A stretch of 64,000 nt of DNA, taken from a virus. The DNA lies in IMG/VR virus record IMGVR_UViG_3300023238_000005, positions 52,041 to 116,040 of that record. One strand, 5' to 3'. The notes beneath the pieces are model-generated. The model ran no database searches. It saw only the letters and a list, made by a program, of their open reading frames with translations, and had not been told where the DNA came from. Each line of letters begins with the position of its first letter. Within the stretch, counting starts at the first letter, position 1. The translations under genes and the position numbers were made by a program. This document shows positions 19,666 through 52,311 of the stretch, in pieces.

Positions 19666-20729
19666 TATACGTTATCCTTTGGTGTCATAAGATCTTGTAA
19701 GTACTGTGGAGGAGTTTTTCCGTTTTTGCCGCCCCAATATCTAAGTGGTAATATGTTACTAATGTAATTAGATTTTTGTCCTGTCCATGCAATATCAATA
19801 TGTATGGCACCAGCACCTAGGTATCCATTACCCATACCAATTGCAGTTGCTCCGGCATCCCTGCATGCTTCAGCAAACTTTATCATAATTGCAAGTTGTG
19901 CAGGATCAGTTGTGTATAGTCTATTACTATCGCCGTCTGTTAGTCTAACTTCTGATGCAAACCCTTTGTCAAATCTATTAGAGCCAGTTCTGTTTTTGCC
20001 GTTGAGGCCGCCTTCACTAGTAGGAACTTGGCCTCCAGTGATTACTGTAACATTAACACCTGCTGCTCTTGCTGCTGTTTCAAGTATGTTCCATAGTTGT
20101 GATTGTATAGGAAGATTACGAATACCACTTATTCTATAGGTAACAATGCCGTCAGCAGATCCAGCTGTTGGTACTACTTGATCAAATGGGACACTGCTTT
20201 CAGAATAAGTCTCGCCATCTGCGCCAGTAATAGCTGTAGTGGTGCCGCCAGCGTAGCCTGCACGTTGAGCATTAACTTCAGTGCCGCCAGTGAATCCTCC
20301 TGGATTCGACGTGTTGTTCCTAATTGCATTATAGTTAGCTGCACTTGTGTTGCCTAAGTTCGTTGGATTACCAACTTCAGCATTAACTATGTCGAGTATA
20401 CCCGATTGCTGCAAGTTAATAAAATCACTTGCTGCTTTTGCAATATTAGCTGGATTGTTTGCTACGTTATCTGCTTCGCGTTGATAAATGCCTTTAGCTC
20501 TGTCATCGCCTCTATCTGTAATAATACGCAAGTCTACTTGTATATCTTCAAACAAACTTGCTATCTCAGCAAGACATGCTTGGTGAGCAATATCAAAATC
20601 AATGTGTACATGATCAGCTGGCGCTGGCGCTGAACCCGGATCAGTGTCAGTGTCACTATCCGTATGGTTGACCGTAGTTTTACCTAAACTTGCGGAATCT
20701 TCATATATATTTGCGCCTGCTATTGACAT
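19665..20729 (-). CDS. Virion protein with degenerate peptidase M15-like C-terminal domain
   Basis: ITGGQ...GSNRFDKGFASEV...IHID; late promoter GATAAATA. Confidence 0.6.
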   Translation of the reverse strand: MSIAGANIYEDSASLGKTTVNHTDSDTDTDPGSAPAPADHVHIDFDIAHQACLAEIASLFEDIQVDLRIITDRGDDRAKGIYQREADNVANNPANIAKAASDFINLQQSGILDIVNAEVGNPTNLGNTSAANYNAIRNNTSNPGGFTGGTEVNAQRAGYAGGTTTAITGADGETYSESSVPFDQVVPTAGSADGIVTYRISGIRNLPIQSQLWNILETAARAAGVNVTVITGGQVPTSEGGLNGKNRTGSNRFDKGFASEVRLTDGDSNRLYTTDPAQLAIMIKFAEACRDAGATAIGMGNGYLGAGAIHIDIAWTGQKSNYISNILPLRYWGGKNGKTPPQYLQDLMTPKDNV

Positions 20730-20762
20730 TTACATTCCTCTTTAGTATATTTATCCTAGAAT

Positions 20763-21053
20763 TTACGCGACTTGAATATTACTAGTACTTGCTGTATATT
20801 GTTTTGCAATTTCAGTTTCAGTTGCAGCCATACAACTTACTGCATGTGCTTGTAGTTCAAACTTTGCATCAGGCGATACGCCAAACATGAAAGGTGCTAG
20901 ACCTAAACCTTGCTGTTGCATAATTAGCACCATTGGCTTAAAAAGTGTATACTGTGATGGCGTCTCGCCATCCATGCGGGCAACTAATTCTTCGCCTGAG
21001 TTTAATTTGAATGAGACAATTTCGCCTACTTTAAGTGGCTTCTGAATGATCAT
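20763..21053 (-). CDS. Hypothetical protein (Sm-like beta fold suspected)
   Basis: IVSFKLNSGEELVAR pattern. Confidence 0.65.
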   Translation of the reverse strand: MIIQKPLKVGEIVSFKLNSGEELVARMDGETPSQYTLFKPMVLIMQQQGLGLAPFMFGVSPDAKFELQAHAVSCMAATETEIAKQYTASTSNIQVA

Positions 21054-21301
21054 AGTGAGTATCCTGTTCCGTTATAGTTAGTTTCTTCTAAGTATGCGCC
21101 TAGCTTATCGTAGCCACCAATTTTTGTTCCGTGTACTGTAATTTGTGGGAAGGTACGTGCTCCTGGAAACTTTTCAAGTACCTCGTCTCGGGTAAAGTCT
21201 GTGCCAAGTTGGAAGTACTTGTATGGCAACTTCCTTGCTTCGCACAAAGCCTTTGCTCTATCACAGAATGGACACTGAGGCTTGCCATAAATTTCTATCA
21301 T
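21050..21301 (-). CDS. grx: Glutaredoxin
   Basis: CPFC active site, TFPQI, IGGY; downstream of nrdB. Confidence 0.93.
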   Translation of the reverse strand: MIEIYGKPQCPFCDRAKALCEARKLPYKYFQLGTDFTRDEVLEKFPGARTFPQITVHGTKIGGYDKLGAYLEETNYNGTGYSL

Positions 21302-21393
21302 AAACTAAATCCTTTAAAAGTATCTTCGCCGACATCCTGCTTTGTGCCGCCGCTGACGTATGATGTAATTTCTGTTTCTTGAGTATTAATCAT
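21298..21393 (-). other. Displaced original nrdB 3' end, forming a 31-codon mini-ORF
   Basis: MINTQETEITSYVSGGTKQDVGEDTFKGFSL duplicates the NrdB C-terminus; GAGGT SD upstream. Confidence 0.85.
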
Positions 21394-22513
21394 TTTTCAT
21401 TACCTCTAATTTCCAACCTTTTGTTTTTCCCTTTTTTGGTATCGGCCAGTTTTTTTGTATTTGCATTTTTAACGTACTTTGACTTAAATTATGCTCCTTG
21501 CAATAGTCGCCTAATTCACTGCCGTATAATATGTGCTCTTCATTATCCGGTGATGATAGTTTGTAACAGTAACTTTTCTTATTTAACTTGCCAACTCGCA
21601 AGCTAGCTTTTTGTCCAATTAACGCTTTAGTATGTGCAGACTGCGTCTTTCCATACATAGGGTTTCCAGAACCAGCATTAAGTTTTTTAAACAATTCCTT
21701 TGTTTCTTCACTGTGTTGCTTTGGGCCATAGCCGCCCCTTTCTTTTTGTAATCTTGATCTTAACTCACGCTGCGCTTGTGCCTTTTCATTACCGTATATT
21801 TCTTCATACGATTTACCTTTATGATTAGGTGGTCGAGCATCTTTGCATATATTTGTTAAGGTGCCGTTCTTATTATATCCTTTGCGGCCGTACTTTTCTA
21901 TTAACACTTCTTCCATATCATATGCTAACTGTTCATCGATGATATTTTCTGCAATATATTCTATAACAGGTTCTAAACCTGCTTTACGAATACTAGCTAT
22001 TTTATTTTCTTTATACTTATTTCTAGTATTAGGCGTAGGGCGCAAATGCGTTGACGCTCTGCCTCCTGTTCCTTTACCAATATAAAACGGTTCATTTGTT
22101 CTTGGATCAACTAGCTGATATACATAAAACATATTATTAATCTCCTGTGTATTGTATTTAGCAAGAGACAGAGAATACCAGTTAGGTACACTATAATCTG
22201 TATTTTGTATTGCACTCCTTGCAAAGATAATAAAATCTCTATTATCCTTATAAGGTGTTACATCAACTAACATTTCGCCATTATTCCATACAGTATGTCG
22301 TATAGCTTGTAGCGTAACTCCTCCGTCAATTATATACCATCCTATAACTGGAGACCCGCCTTCTAACTGAGTATGTGTGTATACATTATTGTGACAGTTG
22401 TCATAATCGTACTCTGCTTCAGGCTCTACTAGTATTGCTCCTACCCAGCTACAGTCTAAGCTTTTACTAAAACTTAGAATGCTATCATCAATGTTAGTAG
22501 GAGTTGTCCACAT
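21386..22513 (-). mobile_element. GIY-YIG (LEM-3-like) homing endonuclease with NUMOD3-like repeats, fused to an N-terminal Cys-His-Asp domain
   Basis: FYVYQLVDPRTNEPFYIGKG from internal Met at 22132; HSEETK and GNPMYGK repeats. Confidence 0.85.
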
Positions 22514-23641
22514 TTAAAGACTAAATCCTTTAAATGTATCTTCACTTACATCTTGCTTCGTACCACCTGAAATATAGCTCGTTATTTGTGTTTGCTGAGG
22601 TGCCACTTGTACTTCGCTACCACTTATCCATTTCTGTGTCCAGGGTAAAGGATTAGTCTTTGTATTGTACGGACTTTTTAGATTTACATTAGTCATTCGA
22701 CGTGTGCAAATCCATTCAATGTATCCACTCAACAACTCTGTGTTAAGTCCAATCATTGATCCATCTTTAAACAAATATTCTGCCCAAGCCTTCTCCTGAT
22801 CAACTGCGTCAACAAACATTTGAATACATGCTTCTTCTGTTTCTTCTGCAATCTTTACATAGTCTGGATCGTCTTTCTTAAGAATCTTTAGCAACATTTG
22901 TGTGCTTGCTAGGTGCAAGTTCTCGTCACGGGCAATAAGTTTAATAATCTTAGCATTGCCTTCCATTTGCTTCATCTCTGCAAACGCCCAGCTACATGCA
23001 AAGCTTACATAGAACCGCACACCTTCAAGAATGTTAACACTCATTAGTGTAAGCCACAACAATTTCTTTAGTTCATACATGTCAACTTTAATCTTCTTGC
23101 CATTAACAGTATGAGTACCTTCGCCTAGCAACTTGTACCAGCGTGTAGTTTCGATAAGGTCATCGTAGTACTTGCTAATGTCTCCAGCACAGTCTGCAAT
23201 CTCTGCAATGTCTAGCATCTCATCAAAGATTTTACTGGGGTTGCTGTATACGTTACGAATAATATGTGTGTATGAGCGTGAGTGGATTGTTTCTGAGAAC
23301 GTCCACGTTGTGATCCAGTTCTCAATCTCTGGTAAACTTACAATAGGCGAAAATGCTTCTACTGGTGCACGACCTTGCACACTATCTAGTAGAATTTGAC
23401 GCTTTAGGTTACTTGTAAAGATGTGACGCTCATGGTCACTAAGAGCTTTAAAGTCTTTTGCATCTTGATAGATGTCTACTTCTTGAGGGACCCAAAAGAA
23501 TCCCAGTTGCTTTTCTGTCAATCCATCAAAGCTTTTGTACTTCAGCGTATCATAACGCTGGATTGTAGGACCGCCCGTTGGGTCCAAGAATGCTAATACT
23601 TTTGTGTGGTCTGCTTTATTTTCAGTGTTAAAAACGCTCAT
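22514..23641 (-). CDS. nrdB: Class Ia ribonucleotide reductase beta subunit
   Basis: FFWVPQE, QILLDSVQGR, ETIHSRSYTH, EGVRFYVSF, RDENLH. Confidence 0.97.
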   Translation of the reverse strand: MSVFNTENKADHTKVLAFLDPTGGPTIQRYDTLKYKSFDGLTEKQLGFFWVPQEVDIYQDAKDFKALSDHERHIFTSNLKRQILLDSVQGRAPVEAFSPIVSLPEIENWITTWTFSETIHSRSYTHIIRNVYSNPSKIFDEMLDIAEIADCAGDISKYYDDLIETTRWYKLLGEGTHTVNGKKIKVDMYELKKLLWLTLMSVNILEGVRFYVSFACSWAFAEMKQMEGNAKIIKLIARDENLHLASTQMLLKILKKDDPDYVKIAEETEEACIQMFVDAVDQEKAWAEYLFKDGSMIGLNTELLSGYIEWICTRRMTNVNLKSPYNTKTNPLPWTQKWISGSEVQVAPQQTQITSYISGGTKQDVSEDTFKGFSL

Positions 23642-23680
23642 CTAATCTCTTACCCTTGTGTGTGTATATCTATAGTATAA

Positions 23681-23708
23681 CTATAACATGTCCCAGAGGA
23701 CATGTCAA
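23681..23708 (-). promoter_or_regulatory. Sigma70 promoter for nrdB with palindromic spacer
   Basis: TTGACA-17-TATAGT; ACATGTCC...GGACATGT. Confidence 0.7.
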
Positions 23709-23711
23709 GTA

Positions 23712-24245
23712 TTAAATGTGACAAGATTCACAATTCTCTTCATCTACTTCAACAACTTCAAGTTCTCCCATCATCTTGTTAACATCTACTTCGCCTTGGC
23801 CATCGTTTGTTTGGAAATAATAAAGCTGTTTTCCGCCTAGCTTGTAGAACATTAAAAGATGCTGCAACATTGTGCTCATTGGTATCTTTTCATCTTCAAA
23901 GTAAATTGGATTGTAACTAGTGTTAACACTAATTCCTTGATCAATGTACTTTTGTAGTACAGCCATAATCTTCAAATAACCTTCTGGAGACTGTTGATCC
24001 CATAGCAAGTCATATTTATTCTTTAAACGCTTGTACTCAGGCACAACTTGCTTTAGTACACCATGCTTGCTCTGCTTGATACTAATTAAACTACGTGGAG
24101 GCTCAATGCCATTTGTAGCATTTGCAATTTGCGCACTAGTGTTATGACTAATGCATCCATTTGACAAGGTATAAGTTTCGTTGTCAGTTGAAACATCCCA
24201 AGTGTGTTCTGTTCCTGCGTCTCTTGTAATACGTTTAATTTTCAT
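23712..24245 (-). CDS. nrdA: Split-intein C part (35 aa) plus C-terminal fragment of RNR alpha subunit
   Basis: MKIKRI...WDVST...YTLSNGCISHN|TSAQIANATNGIEPPR; KQLYY; C-terminal CESCHI. Confidence 0.93.
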   Translation of the reverse strand: MKIKRITRDAGTEHTWDVSTDNETYTLSNGCISHNTSAQIANATNGIEPPRSLISIKQSKHGVLKQVVPEYKRLKNKYDLLWDQQSPEGYLKIMAVLQKYIDQGISVNTSYNPIYFEDEKIPMSTMLQHLLMFYKLGGKQLYYFQTNDGQGEVDVNKMMGELEVVEVDEENCESCHI

Positions 24246-25228
24246 TTTAATAATTCCTCTTTTGTAATTGAACATTTTCCTTGTTTTGATACGTTATCTT
24301 CCCAGGGAATAAATTCTAAATTTTGCAAGCTCCCTAATAACGCAGGATCAATTCTTTCAATAAATCCTCGAGATATTGAAAACTTATGATCTAGATGATA
24401 GGCGTGGTCGATTCCCGCTCGGCCCCTCTTTTCATAATTCGCTAATAGACTCAGGTCGTTTTGATTAGTATATTTCCAAACTTCTTTGTGATACTTTTTA
24501 TAATCAGATAAGTCACAATACGGGACCCAGATGCCATTTTCTTCTAATGTTTTTCTAATCTTTGATTGTCGTTCTCTAAAAACGGTTTCTCCTAGATTAT
24601 CTAGTGTGTTATGACCTCTAGTTTCTCTTATCTTAATATCAATTTCGTTTTTATTTAATGACGTTGTCTTTTCTAAATACTGTCTATAAGAATCAATGCC
24701 TATTTTTTGATCGTGTATTTCTCTAATTTTTCTTTTTGCATAATCAAAAGATTTTCCTCTATCTAAATAATACTGAATATGCAACGGACTATTAGCATAT
24801 TGAAATTCTTTTGCTTTAATTTCTGACTCTTCTTCGCTGTGACCTTTTCTTATATAGAACTCTTTACATCTAGGGCTTTGTGATTTTCCATTTTCTTTAG
24901 CAGTTTTCCATCCTTTTTGTAAGGATTTATTTCTCCATTCGTTGTATAGTTGAGTTCCTTTGTCTACACCGTGTTTTTTAATGAAATTTTCTTTTGATGT
25001 TGCTTTAGATTTTTTAAATTCGAGTATAGTTGTCTCAGCTTCTTCTCGAGTACAACTATCTCTCTTCATTACATAATCAGGGTCATATGGATTGGCCTTG
25101 TTTATTTTTTTGCCCCGGTTCCATGCATTCTTTTCCTTCACCAGAGAGATAGTTGTCTCAGCTTCTTCTCGAGTACAACTATCTCTCTTCATTACATAAT
25201 CAGGGTCATATGGATTGGCTTTTTTCAT
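24242..25228 (-). mobile_element. Free-standing HNH-type homing endonuclease between split-intein halves
   Basis: YHLDHKFSI...NLEFIPWEDNVSK C-terminal nuclease motif; N-terminal repeats; AT rich. Confidence 0.8.
25026..25219. repeat. Identical 71 bp direct repeat (period 123 bp) in endonuclease 5' end
   Basis: 25026-25096 equals 25149-25219; encodes ANPYDPDYVMKRDSCTREEAETTI. Confidence 0.9.
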
Positions 25229-25260
25229 TATAACTTCCTTAGCGTTAATGCTCTAGTTAT

Positions 25261-26217
25261 TTATCCATTAACGCTAACAATATCGTCATCTTCAGTTAAT
25301 TCACCTACTGTTATCCATACTTCTTTGTCATCTCGATTGACTAAAAGTTTATGATTTTCTGTAAATTTGTATGTCGATCCGTCTTCGAATTCAATTTCTG
25401 TAACAGACTGCGGACCGTTATAGTAGCATTCGTGTGCTATACTATTTTCTAGTTCAACAGGTTTTAAGAAAGGAAATCTCTGGCCTATCATGAATCTTTC
25501 GTGAACTGTGTCAATATCAATTTTTCCATAATCTTGAATAACTTCGGCAAGTGTTACAACTGTTCCATCTTTTAGTCTCATTTCATTTTCTAAACTCTGG
25601 CATTCAGCTGGCATAAGGGCCATTAGTGTTGAGTTACGAATGCCTGTGTCCTTTAGCTGTGCTCTAAGTGTATCCCAATCCATACGCTCTACATGTGGAA
25701 CCAACTCATCTAAGTCTTTCTTGTATGTTTGGTTAGGTGTAATACCGTGTCCGTACTTTGTTTCCATGTTGCCACTTGGCGCACCAAATTCTACTGCTAA
25801 GTCGGCACTTGCTTTAATTAAGTAGTACGACCATGCTTCTGCCCACTCGTCTACAAGTGCAAGCCCGTCTGCATCAATGTGCTGATACGTTAGATCATGT
25901 TTTGCTAACCAGTATGCGAAGTTAATAATGCCAACGCCTAAAGGACGGCGCTTCTCTGTAGATAATTGTGCTGCTAGAATTGGATAGTTTTGATAACTTA
26001 GCAGTGCATCCAATCCACGTACTGCCAAGCGACAAACACGCTCAAAGTCTGCCGGAGTACGAATGTTACCCCAGTTGATTGCACTTAGTGTACAAAGCGA
26101 GATAGCAGCGCCGTCATAGTCTTCTACCATTTCATCTACATATACATAATCGTCATCATTAACATCGTCTAAGTTATCGTCTACAATTTCGTACAGCCAT
26201 TTATTTTCCATTTTCAT
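25261..26217 (-). CDS. nrdA: Middle fragment of RNR alpha subunit plus split-intein N part (113 aa)
   Basis: Acidic leader, ISLCTLSAINWG, RRPLGVG, RNSTLMALMPAE|CQSLENE...FTENHKLL. Confidence 0.93.
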   Translation of the reverse strand: MKMENKWLYEIVDDNLDDVNDDDYVYVDEMVEDYDGAAISLCTLSAINWGNIRTPADFERVCRLAVRGLDALLSYQNYPILAAQLSTEKRRPLGVGIINFAYWLAKHDLTYQHIDADGLALVDEWAEAWSYYLIKASADLAVEFGAPSGNMETKYGHGITPNQTYKKDLDELVPHVERMDWDTLRAQLKDTGIRNSTLMALMPAECQSLENEMRLKDGTVVTLAEVIQDYGKIDIDTVHERFMIGQRFPFLKPVELENSIAHECYYNGPQSVTEIEFEDGSTYKFTENHKLLVNRDDKEVWITVGELTEDDDIVSVNG

Positions 26218-26968
26218 ATCCTTTTAATTTTCTTAATTTATACATAGACAATCCTGTTGCTAGCGATGCTTCAGACATTGATCCGTATTTAACGTCATCA
26301 ACAACTATTGATTTAGCAAAAGCATTATCACTTCCGAACATTGCTTTTCCAGGTTTGCCTTTACTTTTCCAATCGTTATATTCGTACTCTACATTACGAT
26401 TGTTTGTTAGTTTTTTACATTTATAATTTTTATAGTGCCTACGCTTACCTCTTGCAACTGCACTCATTGCAGAAGGTTTTAAATTATGTTCCTTACAAAA
26501 ATCTAACATATTTTCTCTAACAACAACATCACCGTTAGGCAAAGTGATTTCCCACGTGTCAATTTTTAATTTATGTCTGTTATGATCGCCCCATAACTGC
26601 TTTCCTTTGTGAGGACTAGGTTTTCCTTTTTTTGCTTTAGATATCCTATCATAATATATTTTAGCTAGCTCTGGATTATCGTGATGGCTCCAACCTCTTC
26701 CTGAATAATTATGAAGATTATAAAAATTAAAATTATTTGCAGCGTCAATATTGCATAGTATATCTTGTTCTTTAGACACTGCTTCTTCCCTAGTTAAATT
26801 ATAGTGTAATATCGTTCTAGTAAAATTTTTAGGATTATTTTCATATATTTCGTTAAAGTAATTGCTAGACGAAATATACCCATCGTCAAACGTTCCATAA
26901 TGAGAACCTATATATTTTTTATTATCTGTTGCTGATTCCCACATATAAATAAATCCTGTTTTACTCAT
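26201..26968 (-). mobile_element. GIY-YIG homing endonuclease (Seg-like) splitting nrdA
   Basis: GFIYMW...KKYIGSH...GYISSS, FYNL. Confidence 0.88.
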
Positions 26969-27002
26969 AATACTATACTCCTTTGTATAGTATTATTTAT
27001 CC

Positions 27003-28481
27003 TTATGTACTTTTTTTGCCATCAAATCTTTCTTTGTCAAGCCTTAAAATATTTCCTACTGATTTTTTATATTCTACGTATTCTTGATACTTTTCTTTAG
27101 GAATACGCACTCGTCTCCTGTGTGCCCCGTCGTTTAGATCTTTAAGTGGCTTAGTTGGCAATGTAATTTCTGCGCACAAGTTACTCATTCTAATAGGTGC
27201 AATTTCTGGTATAAAGCTGCCATGATCGTTTGCATTGTCTACGTTTTGTAAATAAATGCGTCCTGTATTCTTACGCTCTTCCATAAAATTACTGAACAGT
27301 TCACTTGCTTTAACTGACTTCTTACGTAGTCGTGTGTTACGTTCTGCTGTTTCGTATAGTTCTTTAAACTTGTCTTGATCTGCAAAGAAAGCTTCGTACA
27401 ATCCAGGAACGTCTGCAGGCGAGAACAAAGTTATGTCGCTACCAGTTACTAGTCTTTCATACATCAACTTGTTAAACTGTACACCGTAGTCCATGTGTCG
27501 TACACGGTTCTCTTCGGTCCCTTTGTTGTTCTTTAACACTAGCATGTCTTCTACTTCGAGGTGCCATACAGGGTAGTATATAGTTGCTGCTCCGCCACGT
27601 ACACCGCCTTGGCTGCATGACTTTACTGCTGATTGGAAATGCTTATAGAAAGGAATGATTCCTGTGTGATATGCATCGCCTTTACGTATGGGGGAGCCGA
27701 TAGCACGTATGCTTCCTCCGCCGATACCAATGCCTGCTTTTTGTGAGACGTACTTAACAACAGAGGCAGCAGTAGCATTAATGCTGTCAAGACTGTCATC
27801 AGTTTCAATGAGTACGCACGAACTGAACTGGCGCTGCGGGGTACGCACACCAGCCATAACAGGAGTAGGTAAACTAATGTCGTGTAAACTAATAGCATCG
27901 TAATATTCCTTGACCCATTGCAACCGAGTCTCTATTGGATAGTCTTGAAACAAACTTGCTGCAATAAGAATGTAGCAAACTTGTGGAGTTTCAAAGATTT
28001 CGCCGCTTACTCTATTTTGTACTAGGTATTTGCCGCGAAGCTGTTCCATTGCAACATAAGTTAAGTTCTCGTCGCGCTCGTGCTTAATAAATGTATTGAT
28101 TCTATTCCACTCGTCAGTTGTATACTTTGTAACGAGTTCAGAATCATAAAATCCAGCTTCTGTATTTCTGTCAACTAGTTCTTTAATATGACAAGGTTCA
28201 AACCCATCGTAAACTTCTTTGCGTAGTGCATAGTTTACAAGGCGTCCGCCTACATATTGATAGTTAGGAGTTTCTGCACTGATAAGATCTGCTGCTGCTT
28301 TGATTAGCGTTTCTTGGATTTCTTTACTAGTTACTCCATTGTAGAACTGTATTTGACTTTTAAGTTCTACTTCGCTAGGGCTAACTCCTGTAATATTTTC
28401 ACAAGCATAAAATACAACCTTGTGTAGTTTTTCAATGTCTAGAAGTTCTTTGTCGCCGTCACGTTTGGTAACTTGAATCAT
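27003..28481 (-). CDS. nrdA: N-terminal fragment of class Ia RNR alpha subunit with basic C-terminal extension
   Basis: ATP cone VTKRDG, PTPVMAGVR, QFSSCVL, SCSQGGVRGG, SNLCAEITLP. Confidence 0.96.
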   Translation of the reverse strand: MIQVTKRDGDKELLDIEKLHKVVFYACENITGVSPSEVELKSQIQFYNGVTSKEIQETLIKAAADLISAETPNYQYVGGRLVNYALRKEVYDGFEPCHIKELVDRNTEAGFYDSELVTKYTTDEWNRINTFIKHERDENLTYVAMEQLRGKYLVQNRVSGEIFETPQVCYILIAASLFQDYPIETRLQWVKEYYDAISLHDISLPTPVMAGVRTPQRQFSSCVLIETDDSLDSINATAASVVKYVSQKAGIGIGGGSIRAIGSPIRKGDAYHTGIIPFYKHFQSAVKSCSQGGVRGGAATIYYPVWHLEVEDMLVLKNNKGTEENRVRHMDYGVQFNKLMYERLVTGSDITLFSPADVPGLYEAFFADQDKFKELYETAERNTRLRKKSVKASELFSNFMEERKNTGRIYLQNVDNANDHGSFIPEIAPIRMSNLCAEITLPTKPLKDLNDGAHRRRVRIPKEKYQEYVEYKKSVGNILRLDKERFDGKKST

Positions 28482-51930: not shown

Positions 51931-52311
51931 ATGGGTACTAGAAGCGCAATAGGTTACAAACTTCCGAATGGTAAGATCCGTGCAAAGTATTGTCACTGGA
52001 ATGGCTATGTTGATGGCGGCGTTGGTCAAACTCTACAAGAGAGCTACCAAGCTGCGTTTAAAATTGGTCGTATGGTTGAGCTAGGTGACATGAGTACACT
52101 AGCTGCTGAGATTGACGACTGCGTGTTTTACGGTCGTGACAAAGGCGAAACTAACGTAGACGCACAAGACTACGATGACATTATTGTCTTCGCCTCCATC
52201 TTCGAAGGCTGCGAATACTTTTATGTATGGAACGGCAACGAGTGGTTGGTTAGTGAAGGCAACTTGGTGTTTAATCGTGTAGAGGACTTGCTGGAAGTAT
52301 TAGCTGCCTAA
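51931..52311 (+). CDS. Early phage protein (MGTRS...YCHWNGY motif)
   Basis: Start after AAAGGGCA; ends LAA. Confidence 0.8.
   Translation: MGTRSAIGYKLPNGKIRAKYCHWNGYVDGGVGQTLQESYQAAFKIGRMVELGDMSTLAAEIDDCVFYGRDKGETNVDAQDYDDIIVFASIFEGCEYFYVWNGNEWLVSEGNLVFNRVEDLLEVLAA

Follow-up and report, generated by a model that had tools for sequence, protein, structure and literature searches.

A mobile endonuclease cassette in the 3' end of a phage nrdB gene that replaces tail glutamates with glutamines and carries a candidate compensating domain

The stretch of DNA analysed here, called the window throughout, comprises 64,000 nucleotides (nt; positions 52,041 to 116,040) of IMGVR_UViG_3300023238_000005, a marine phage record of 116 kb in IMG/VR with an estimated completeness of 32%, and it contains an nrdB gene whose 3' end is occupied by a mobile cassette. 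The gene (22514-23641, minus strand, as are all window features named below) encodes the beta subunit of a class Ia ribonucleotide reductase (RNR) of 375 amino acids. The protein has the R2 ferritin-like fold (Pfam Ribonuc_red_sm, 164 bits) and the tail residue Tyr356, and E. coli NrdB matches it at E 6e-133, collinear over residues 24-374 and with identical numbering. The glutamate that marks class Ia beta subunits at position 350 is absent; glutamine is found there and at 352 (Q350, 22592-22594; Q352, 22586-22588; Y356, 22574-22576), so that the motif QEVEVSSY of E. coli reads QQTQITSY in the window, with Y356 kept. The collinear alignment thus bears out the initial annotation, made from the letters of the window, which had described a replacement tail without the equivalents of E350 and E352.

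These codons belong to an in-frame tail of foreign type (codons 349-375 and the stop, 22514-22597). Right behind the nrdB stop, in the arrangement TAAATG, begins the cassette open reading frame (ORF) of 375 amino acids (21386-22513), which separates this tail from a second copy of it. Amino acids 1-126 of the cassette ORF (22136-22513) form a Cys-His-Asp (CHD) domain, supported by an invariant triad and an AlphaFold (AF2) model, and amino acids 127-375 (21386-22135) form a GIY-YIG homing endonuclease part with a NUMOD3 motif. The second tail copy constitutes the last 27 codons and the stop (21298-21381) of a mini-ORF of 31 amino acids (21298-21393), whose stop overlaps the start of the glutaredoxin gene grx (21050-21301; Pfam Glutaredoxin, 49 bits) as ATGA.

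The initial annotation had noticed that the last 84 nt of nrdB occur twice and had taken the downstream copy for the original and the in-frame copy for one that came with the element. Both statements hold. The two copies in the window are identical at 59/84 nt and 23/27 amino acids; a comparison of the 27 codons finds 10 unchanged, 13 with synonymous differences (two of them AGC/TCA serine switches) and 4 with amino-acid exchanges, namely E350Q, E352Q, one V/I and one G/S exchange, the downstream copy encoding both glutamates. The body of the window nrdB is closest to four uninvaded alleles (L035-L038), with which it forms a well-supported clade and of which one (L036) is 93% identical in nt. 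Against the tails of L037, L035 and L038 the downstream copy matches at 75, 74 and 73 of 84 nt, and its amino acids equal those of the L038 tail, whereas the in-frame tail matches these same relatives at just 56-63/84 nt and finds no better match than 68/84 nt among all sampled tails. An ATGA overlap of the nrdB stop with the grx start is also present in most of about 70 related loci without an insert. Because the downstream copy, unlike the in-frame one, matches the closest relatives and keeps this overlap, it is the displaced native tail (hereafter the relic), and the in-frame copy is foreign. It had further been stated that the copies differ at most synonymous positions, which is correct for the window and fails for two other invaded loci (L002, L019), where the in-frame tail has in its middle the same nucleotides as the relic of that locus and is of the element type only at its two ends. 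The identical middles point to gene conversion between the copies, and the heavy synonymous recoding in the window is therefore not general to the element.

The nuclease part is recognised by Pfam LEM-3_GIY-YIG (28.4 bits, cut-off 27), by NUMOD3 (34.1 bits) and by PHROG 314 'homing endonuclease', and so combines the catalytic domain and the DNA-binding module of a free-standing GIY-YIG homing endonuclease. Full-length homologues of the 375-residue ORF follow nrdB in many viral contigs. The loci compared here and below are metagenomic contigs forming a redundant set, and counts refer to the matches listed. In five locus pairs the synonymous divergence (dS) of the cassette is far below that of the adjoining nrdB: the window and L002 differ by a dS of 0.20 in the cassette ORF while nrdB is saturated, L003 and L005 have identical cassette ORFs at an nrdB dS of 0.72, and the L009-L014 pair shows 0.004 against 0.16. 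The cassette itself evolves with a dN/dS of 0.1-0.2. On the nrdB tree the invaded state requires at least 5-6 changes, and the window nrdB nests among uninvaded alleles, so that the cassette is polymorphic in presence and absence and moves horizontally relative to nrdB. It is a mobile cassette of three parts (tail copy, CHD domain and GIY-YIG nuclease) in the nrdB 3' end, and it has passed horizontally between diverged alleles. It supplied its own codons 350-375 and stop, followed by CHD fused to the nuclease, and displaced the native tail downstream; comparison of the alleles places its entry point exactly at the boundary of codons 349 and 350. A near-identity DNA search of GenBank phages returned a sole match of 38 nt. 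With tblastn against cultured phages the cassette ORF gave matches that cover only amino acids 125-375, and the CHD domain gave one weak match in a fecal phage. Given the 38-nt match and the weak CHD match, no isolate in these searches carries the cassette.

When 9 invaded sequences are set against 68 uninvaded ones, all distinct, no coding difference is fixed except a G-to-C change in the first position of each of codons 350 and 352. A scan for DNA coding QVAPQQTQ listed 80 loci, 77 of which are NrdB tails; the 54 distinct QQTQ tails among these matches have invariant Q350, Q352 and Y356 while the rest of the tail falls to 58% identity. A second NrdB clade shows the same kind of change with an additional site: its uninvaded alleles read QETEVESY (115/120) and its invaded alleles QQTQVQSY, a third Glu-to-Gln change at position 354. 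The idea that QQTQ is fixed across the whole of this second clade was rejected, as at least 120 Glu alleles occur there. Glu350 is present in all 170 cassette-free alleles sampled, and QQTQ tails, which the initial annotation had considered might be common in uninvaded homologues, occur in none of them (0/78 in the window's clade and 0/92 in the second). One cassette-free locus close to the invaded L002 has a tail reading QETQ, with E352Q only (L098:1466-1549), and the relic of L143 likewise reads ETQ. On account of these two loci, position 352 seems less constrained than 350, which appears as Gln only when CHD is present.

E350 of the E. coli enzyme has been called essential for turnover, and in cryo-EM structures it positions the beta tail through contacts with alpha (PMC8463856, PMC11482829); its substitution is reported to disrupt radical transfer (PMC11482829). 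The nuclease would recognise the conserved Gln-Glu-Thr-Glu coding DNA of naive alleles, and carrier DNA would be uncuttable because GAA has become CAA at codons 350 and 352 and, in the second clade, also at 354. The fixed G-to-C changes at codons 350/352, together with the relic junction shared at codon 350, are the reasons for this reading of carrier immunity. We consider it probable that the nuclease targets QETE-coding DNA and that the Gln codons protect the carrier allele, which makes the cleavage-resistant tail supposed in the initial annotation a reasonable idea.

The first 126 amino acids of what had been annotated as an endonuclease ORF are a separate domain, which the initial annotation had overlooked. 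In an alignment of 53 diverse homologues C40, H41, Y60, A70, H73, D84 and P87 are invariant, and each of the 70 distinct copies at nrdB loci keeps C40, H73 and D84. The AF2 model (pLDDT 88.6, pTM 0.82) places Cys40 at the N-terminus of a helix (40-51) and His73 and Asp84 on adjacent strands (67-77 and 82-84), which gives the invariant Cys, His, Asp order with Cys at a helix N-terminus that is characteristic of transglutaminase- and papain-like enzymes. CHD found no sequence match in Pfam, PHROG, NCBIfam or PDB, and Foldseek of the model against PDB found nothing; BFVD holds unannotated relatives only and the Protein Atlas unnamed clusters only. In VIA-align the only neighbours that span the core are transglutaminase- or papain-like Cys-His-Asp enzymes, with weak scores (Z 2.4-3.7), the best being 3.7 to TglA and PeiW. 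The CHD family comprises 1648 cluster representatives and includes stand-alone proteins, GIY-YIG fusions and bacterial forms with a SEC-C motif. Some bacterial relatives (P0205, P0208 and P0254; L383-L387) have about 180-275 amino acids and end in the SEC-C zinc motif; their neighbourhoods are varied and partly prophage-like, and no conserved partner was found in them. In another relative (P0153, 538 amino acids) CHD forms the C-terminal end of a fusion with a nuclease-like protein of another type, which has repeated treble-clef zinc fingers (DUF723/DUF4379); the relatives found for P0153 matched its nuclease part only.

Among the loci compared, Gln tails and CHD occur together. Every Gln-tail locus whose contig reaches far enough downstream carries CHD (136/136), the six apparent exceptions being contig ends, and no Glu-tail locus does (0/78 in the window's clade and 0/92 in the second clade). 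The position of CHD relative to the nuclease varies: 37 loci have it fused in front of the nuclease, and it forms an ORF of its own behind the nuclease in 28 loci and ahead of it in 2. Four loci have a QQTQ tail and an intact CHD directly after nrdB and have lost the nuclease, either entirely (L161, L165, L206) or down to a C-terminal remnant (L203). At L346, by contrast, a GIY-YIG ORF lies 57 nt downstream at the usual site without CHD, and the tail, QETEQETY, keeps Glu at 350, 352 and 354. Because of these four nuclease-less loci and this nuclease-only Glu locus, the Gln residues track the CHD domain and not the nuclease, and CHD is the constant part of the cassette. The tail of L346 also has Val353Gln and Ser355Thr; these changes may be an alternative solution to immunity.

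These observations suggest a cassette in which Gln-codon immunity is combined with a compensating CHD domain, which is our best explanation overall and one that we hold evenly balanced between acceptance and doubt. The substrate of CHD would be the NrdB tail, which is disordered, and the simplest activity would be that of a protein-glutamine deamidase regenerating Glu, with the outcome that the DNA would be immune and the protein restored. CHD and the Gln codons would then outlive the nuclease because nrdB has become dependent on CHD. All three substitutions (350, 352 and 354) are to Gln, the only residue that an amidohydrolase can turn into Glu. A deamidase would account for four observations: every substitution is to Gln, CHD is never missing, its translation comes directly after that of NrdB, and it persists where the nuclease has gone. 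For the part of this explanation that concerns CHD our confidence is lower. That the glutamates matter for radical transfer, and that the cassette for this reason carries a compensating putative enzyme, is a suggestion on which we lean very slightly towards doubt; that the nuclease recodes essential NrdB glutamates as Gln and carries a putative deamidase restoring Glu after translation is put forward tentatively.

Several points weigh against compensation by CHD, and some of them at the same time favour the main rival explanation, which is that Gln is tolerated. According to this rival, Gln is isosteric with Glu and may simply be accepted by these enzymes, the E-to-Q changes being immunity mutations to the closest isostere, and CHD is only linked to them and serves some other purpose, for example as an accessory of the nuclease or through an unrelated benefit to the phage. 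About 75 nt separate the Gln codons from the start of CHD, a physical linkage so tight that it could account for the co-occurrence, and only five discordant loci, in a redundant set of contigs, separate CHD from the nuclease. The family is also far wider than nrdB and occurs in unrelated bacterial contexts, so that its function may be generic. Not every class I subclass conserves Q349 and E350 (PMC8463856). In the alpha subunit the hairpin that contacts E350 shows no compensating change, its Ser-Lys-His being the same in invaded and uninvaded loci; this comparison covered the hairpin, and K154 of alpha falls outside the loci compared. The nrdB dN/dS of 0.04-0.07 in invaded pairs also counts in favour of tolerance. 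Two further points concern the enzyme proposed for CHD: a candidate deamidase would have to spare Q349, and, the fold matches being weak, it is chiefly the triad, with its order and placement, that justifies the label 'transglutaminase-like'. We nevertheless consider tolerated Gln rather unlikely, since E350 is invariant in the 170 cassette-free alleles and essential in E. coli, an intact-triad CHD persists beside QQTQ in the four loci where the nuclease is gone, as a nuclease accessory should not, and the single nuclease-only locus has Glu. A different possibility is that the cassette cripples RNR and spreads all the same by super-Mendelian homing, the phage RNR being auxiliary to the host supply of deoxynucleoside triphosphates. 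The strong evidence for recent horizontal spread would suit it, as would the minority of invaded alleles interspersed among uninvaded ones. This is quite improbable, given that Y356, the alpha-binding C-terminus and Q350/Q352 are invariant across more than 50 distinct QQTQ tails that otherwise diverge to 58% identity, and that nrdB is intact in the nuclease-free loci, where the drive has stopped and a dead gene would decay.

The remaining alternatives give the relic a role. Free C-terminal peptides of beta inhibit class I RNRs, and the relic peptide might be such a competitive inhibitor of alpha-beta binding, or might supply a Glu-bearing tail in trans. In the window it is intact and identical in amino acids to a genuine tail; as the initial annotation had described, and the window sequence confirms, the mini-ORF has its own ATG (21391-21393), 8 nt after GAGGT (21402-21406), overlaps the stop of the cassette ORF as ATGATTAA, and shares ATGA with grx. 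A survey of 70 distinct invaded alleles with enough downstream sequence makes a function of the peptide very improbable. The relic is of full length in 7/70 (all 7 beginning at the E350 codon), about 20/70 retain just the last 5-12 tail codons, and it is wholly missing in about 41/70. The full-length relic of L179 carries accumulated amino-acid changes, and the ATG and GAGGT of the mini-ORF lie within conserved C-terminal codons of the nuclease (KLEV...ND*). Its intactness in the window is explained by recent invasion, as it shows 9-11 mostly synonymous differences from relatives, like the gene body. The role proposed earlier for the 31-residue peptide is therefore not sustained. As the relic is of full length in so few alleles, it is a dispensable, decaying by-product, of which the part that tends to persist is the grx ribosome-binding site and start overlap; the short relics are often in-frame fusions to the nuclease C-terminus, whose stop then overlaps the grx start. 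The mini-ORF would at most relay translational coupling from the cassette ORF to grx. A rejoining of the nrdB body with the native tail by RNA or protein splicing or by translational bypass, an excision that the initial annotation had also allowed for, is extremely improbable. T-even nrdB genes do host group I introns (PMC2988022), and the adjoining nrdA carries a split intein. However, no intron model of Rfam, group I included, gave a match at E <= 1 within 20500-27500. The in-frame tail is closed by a stop codon, intein motifs are absent, and a complete second tail is missing from about 90% of invaded alleles.

The layout of the locus has a precedent in the fungal mitochondrial mORFs, which form C-terminal gene hybrids in atp6 of Allomyces and in atp6, atp9, cox2 and nad3 of Glomus (PMC3630166). 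In these as in the window, an endonuclease gene sits in the 3' end of a host gene, with a foreign C-terminus in frame and the native one downstream. The native copies of the fungal genes are 91-98% identical in nt to relatives and the inserted copies 64-81%, with nearly the same protein (PMC3630166), and the matches to L035, L037 and L038 of 73-75/84 nt for the relic and 56-63/84 nt for the in-frame tail make the window nrdB a C-terminal hybrid of this type. The window case differs in that it concerns a phage and not an organelle, functionally critical residues are changed and CHD is always included. Free-standing endonucleases of T4-like phages (Seg and Mob, with mobE beside nrdB; PMC2988022), known for 'intronless homing', are a second comparison. 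Like the window cassette they place a GIY-YIG gene beside a gene of nucleotide metabolism, spread by double-strand-break repair with co-conversion of the flanks, and their carriers differ at the target. Unlike the cassette, the known cases sit between genes without duplicated host coding sequence, and they have not been reported with a second enzyme-like domain or with fixed non-synonymous changes in a catalytic pathway.

For the proposed chemistry there are two parallels in which a residue encoded as Gln is needed as Glu and is converted by a dedicated amidohydrolase, namely CheD/CheB acting on chemoreceptors and Dop acting on Pup. No relationship of CHD to either was found in sequence, nor a significant one in structure, and in neither is the Gln tied to protection from a selfish nuclease, as is proposed here. 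PeiW, PeiP, TglA, staphopain and arylamine N-acetyltransferase share with CHD the Cys...His...Asp order, the Cys at a helix N-terminus and the placement of His and Asp on neighbouring strands, but CHD is much smaller (about 110 amino acids), scores only Z 2.4-3.7 and gives no profile match to them. Introns and inteins resemble the cassette in that the nuclease comes together with some means of sparing the product of the host gene from the effect of the insertion; in the cassette nothing is spliced out, and the proposed repair would act on two or three side chains.

The tail duplication alone is an ordinary by-product of such invasion, in a layout already known from fungal mitochondria. What is new is the confinement of Gln at 350/352 (and at 354 in the second clade), among public viral contigs, to alleles bearing the cassette, and the constant, unannotated CHD domain. 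More than 50 distinct natural class Ia beta subunits with Gln350 either work without the carboxylate or have it restored enzymatically, and both outcomes are informative. The cassette couples immunity of the target site at non-synonymous positions to a second, always-present enzyme-like domain, and the survival of CHD after loss of the nuclease suggests a new route to dependence of a host on an element. If the proposal is true, a selfish nuclease could spare its host gene in a third manner, in addition to introns and inteins, and the host gene would be left dependent on the CHD enzyme after the nuclease decays. The widespread CHD family would gain a concrete substrate hypothesis.

Some further features of the region were recorded. 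A 10-bp inverted repeat, ACATTTAAAG / CTTTAAATGT (22510-22537), covers the stop codon of nrdB and the ATG with which the cassette ORF begins; it is perfect, pairs this ATG with the nrdB codons Thr-Phe-Lys-Gly, and is found in some invaded loci (e.g. L017) and not in all. The RNA fold of 22480-22560 has -15.4 kcal/mol (z = -2.0) with the start codon of the cassette ORF paired, and by this model the hairpin would allow only ribosomes coming directly from nrdB to translate the cassette ORF. A scan for promoters and terminators gave nothing above shuffled sequences. At four of the compared loci (L097:3628-4818, also L111, L112 and L104) a gene of about 396 amino acids takes the place of grx right behind a normal QETE nrdB; by eye its product looks like a pyridoxal-phosphate aminotransferase or 5-aminolevulinate synthase. 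In the nrdA region of the window (23712-26968), the gene is broken around two more endonuclease-like ORFs. One nrdA piece (25261-26217) ends in an intein N-part (Pfam Intein_splicing), and another (23712-24275) opens with an intein C-part that ends in His-Asn and is followed by Thr. Between these pieces lies an ORF of 328 amino acids (24242-25228; PHROG 5104, function not annotated), and a further ORF (26201-26968) matches PHROG 314 'homing endonuclease'. This broken arrangement of nrdA resembles the 'fractured genes' described elsewhere (PMC2677866).

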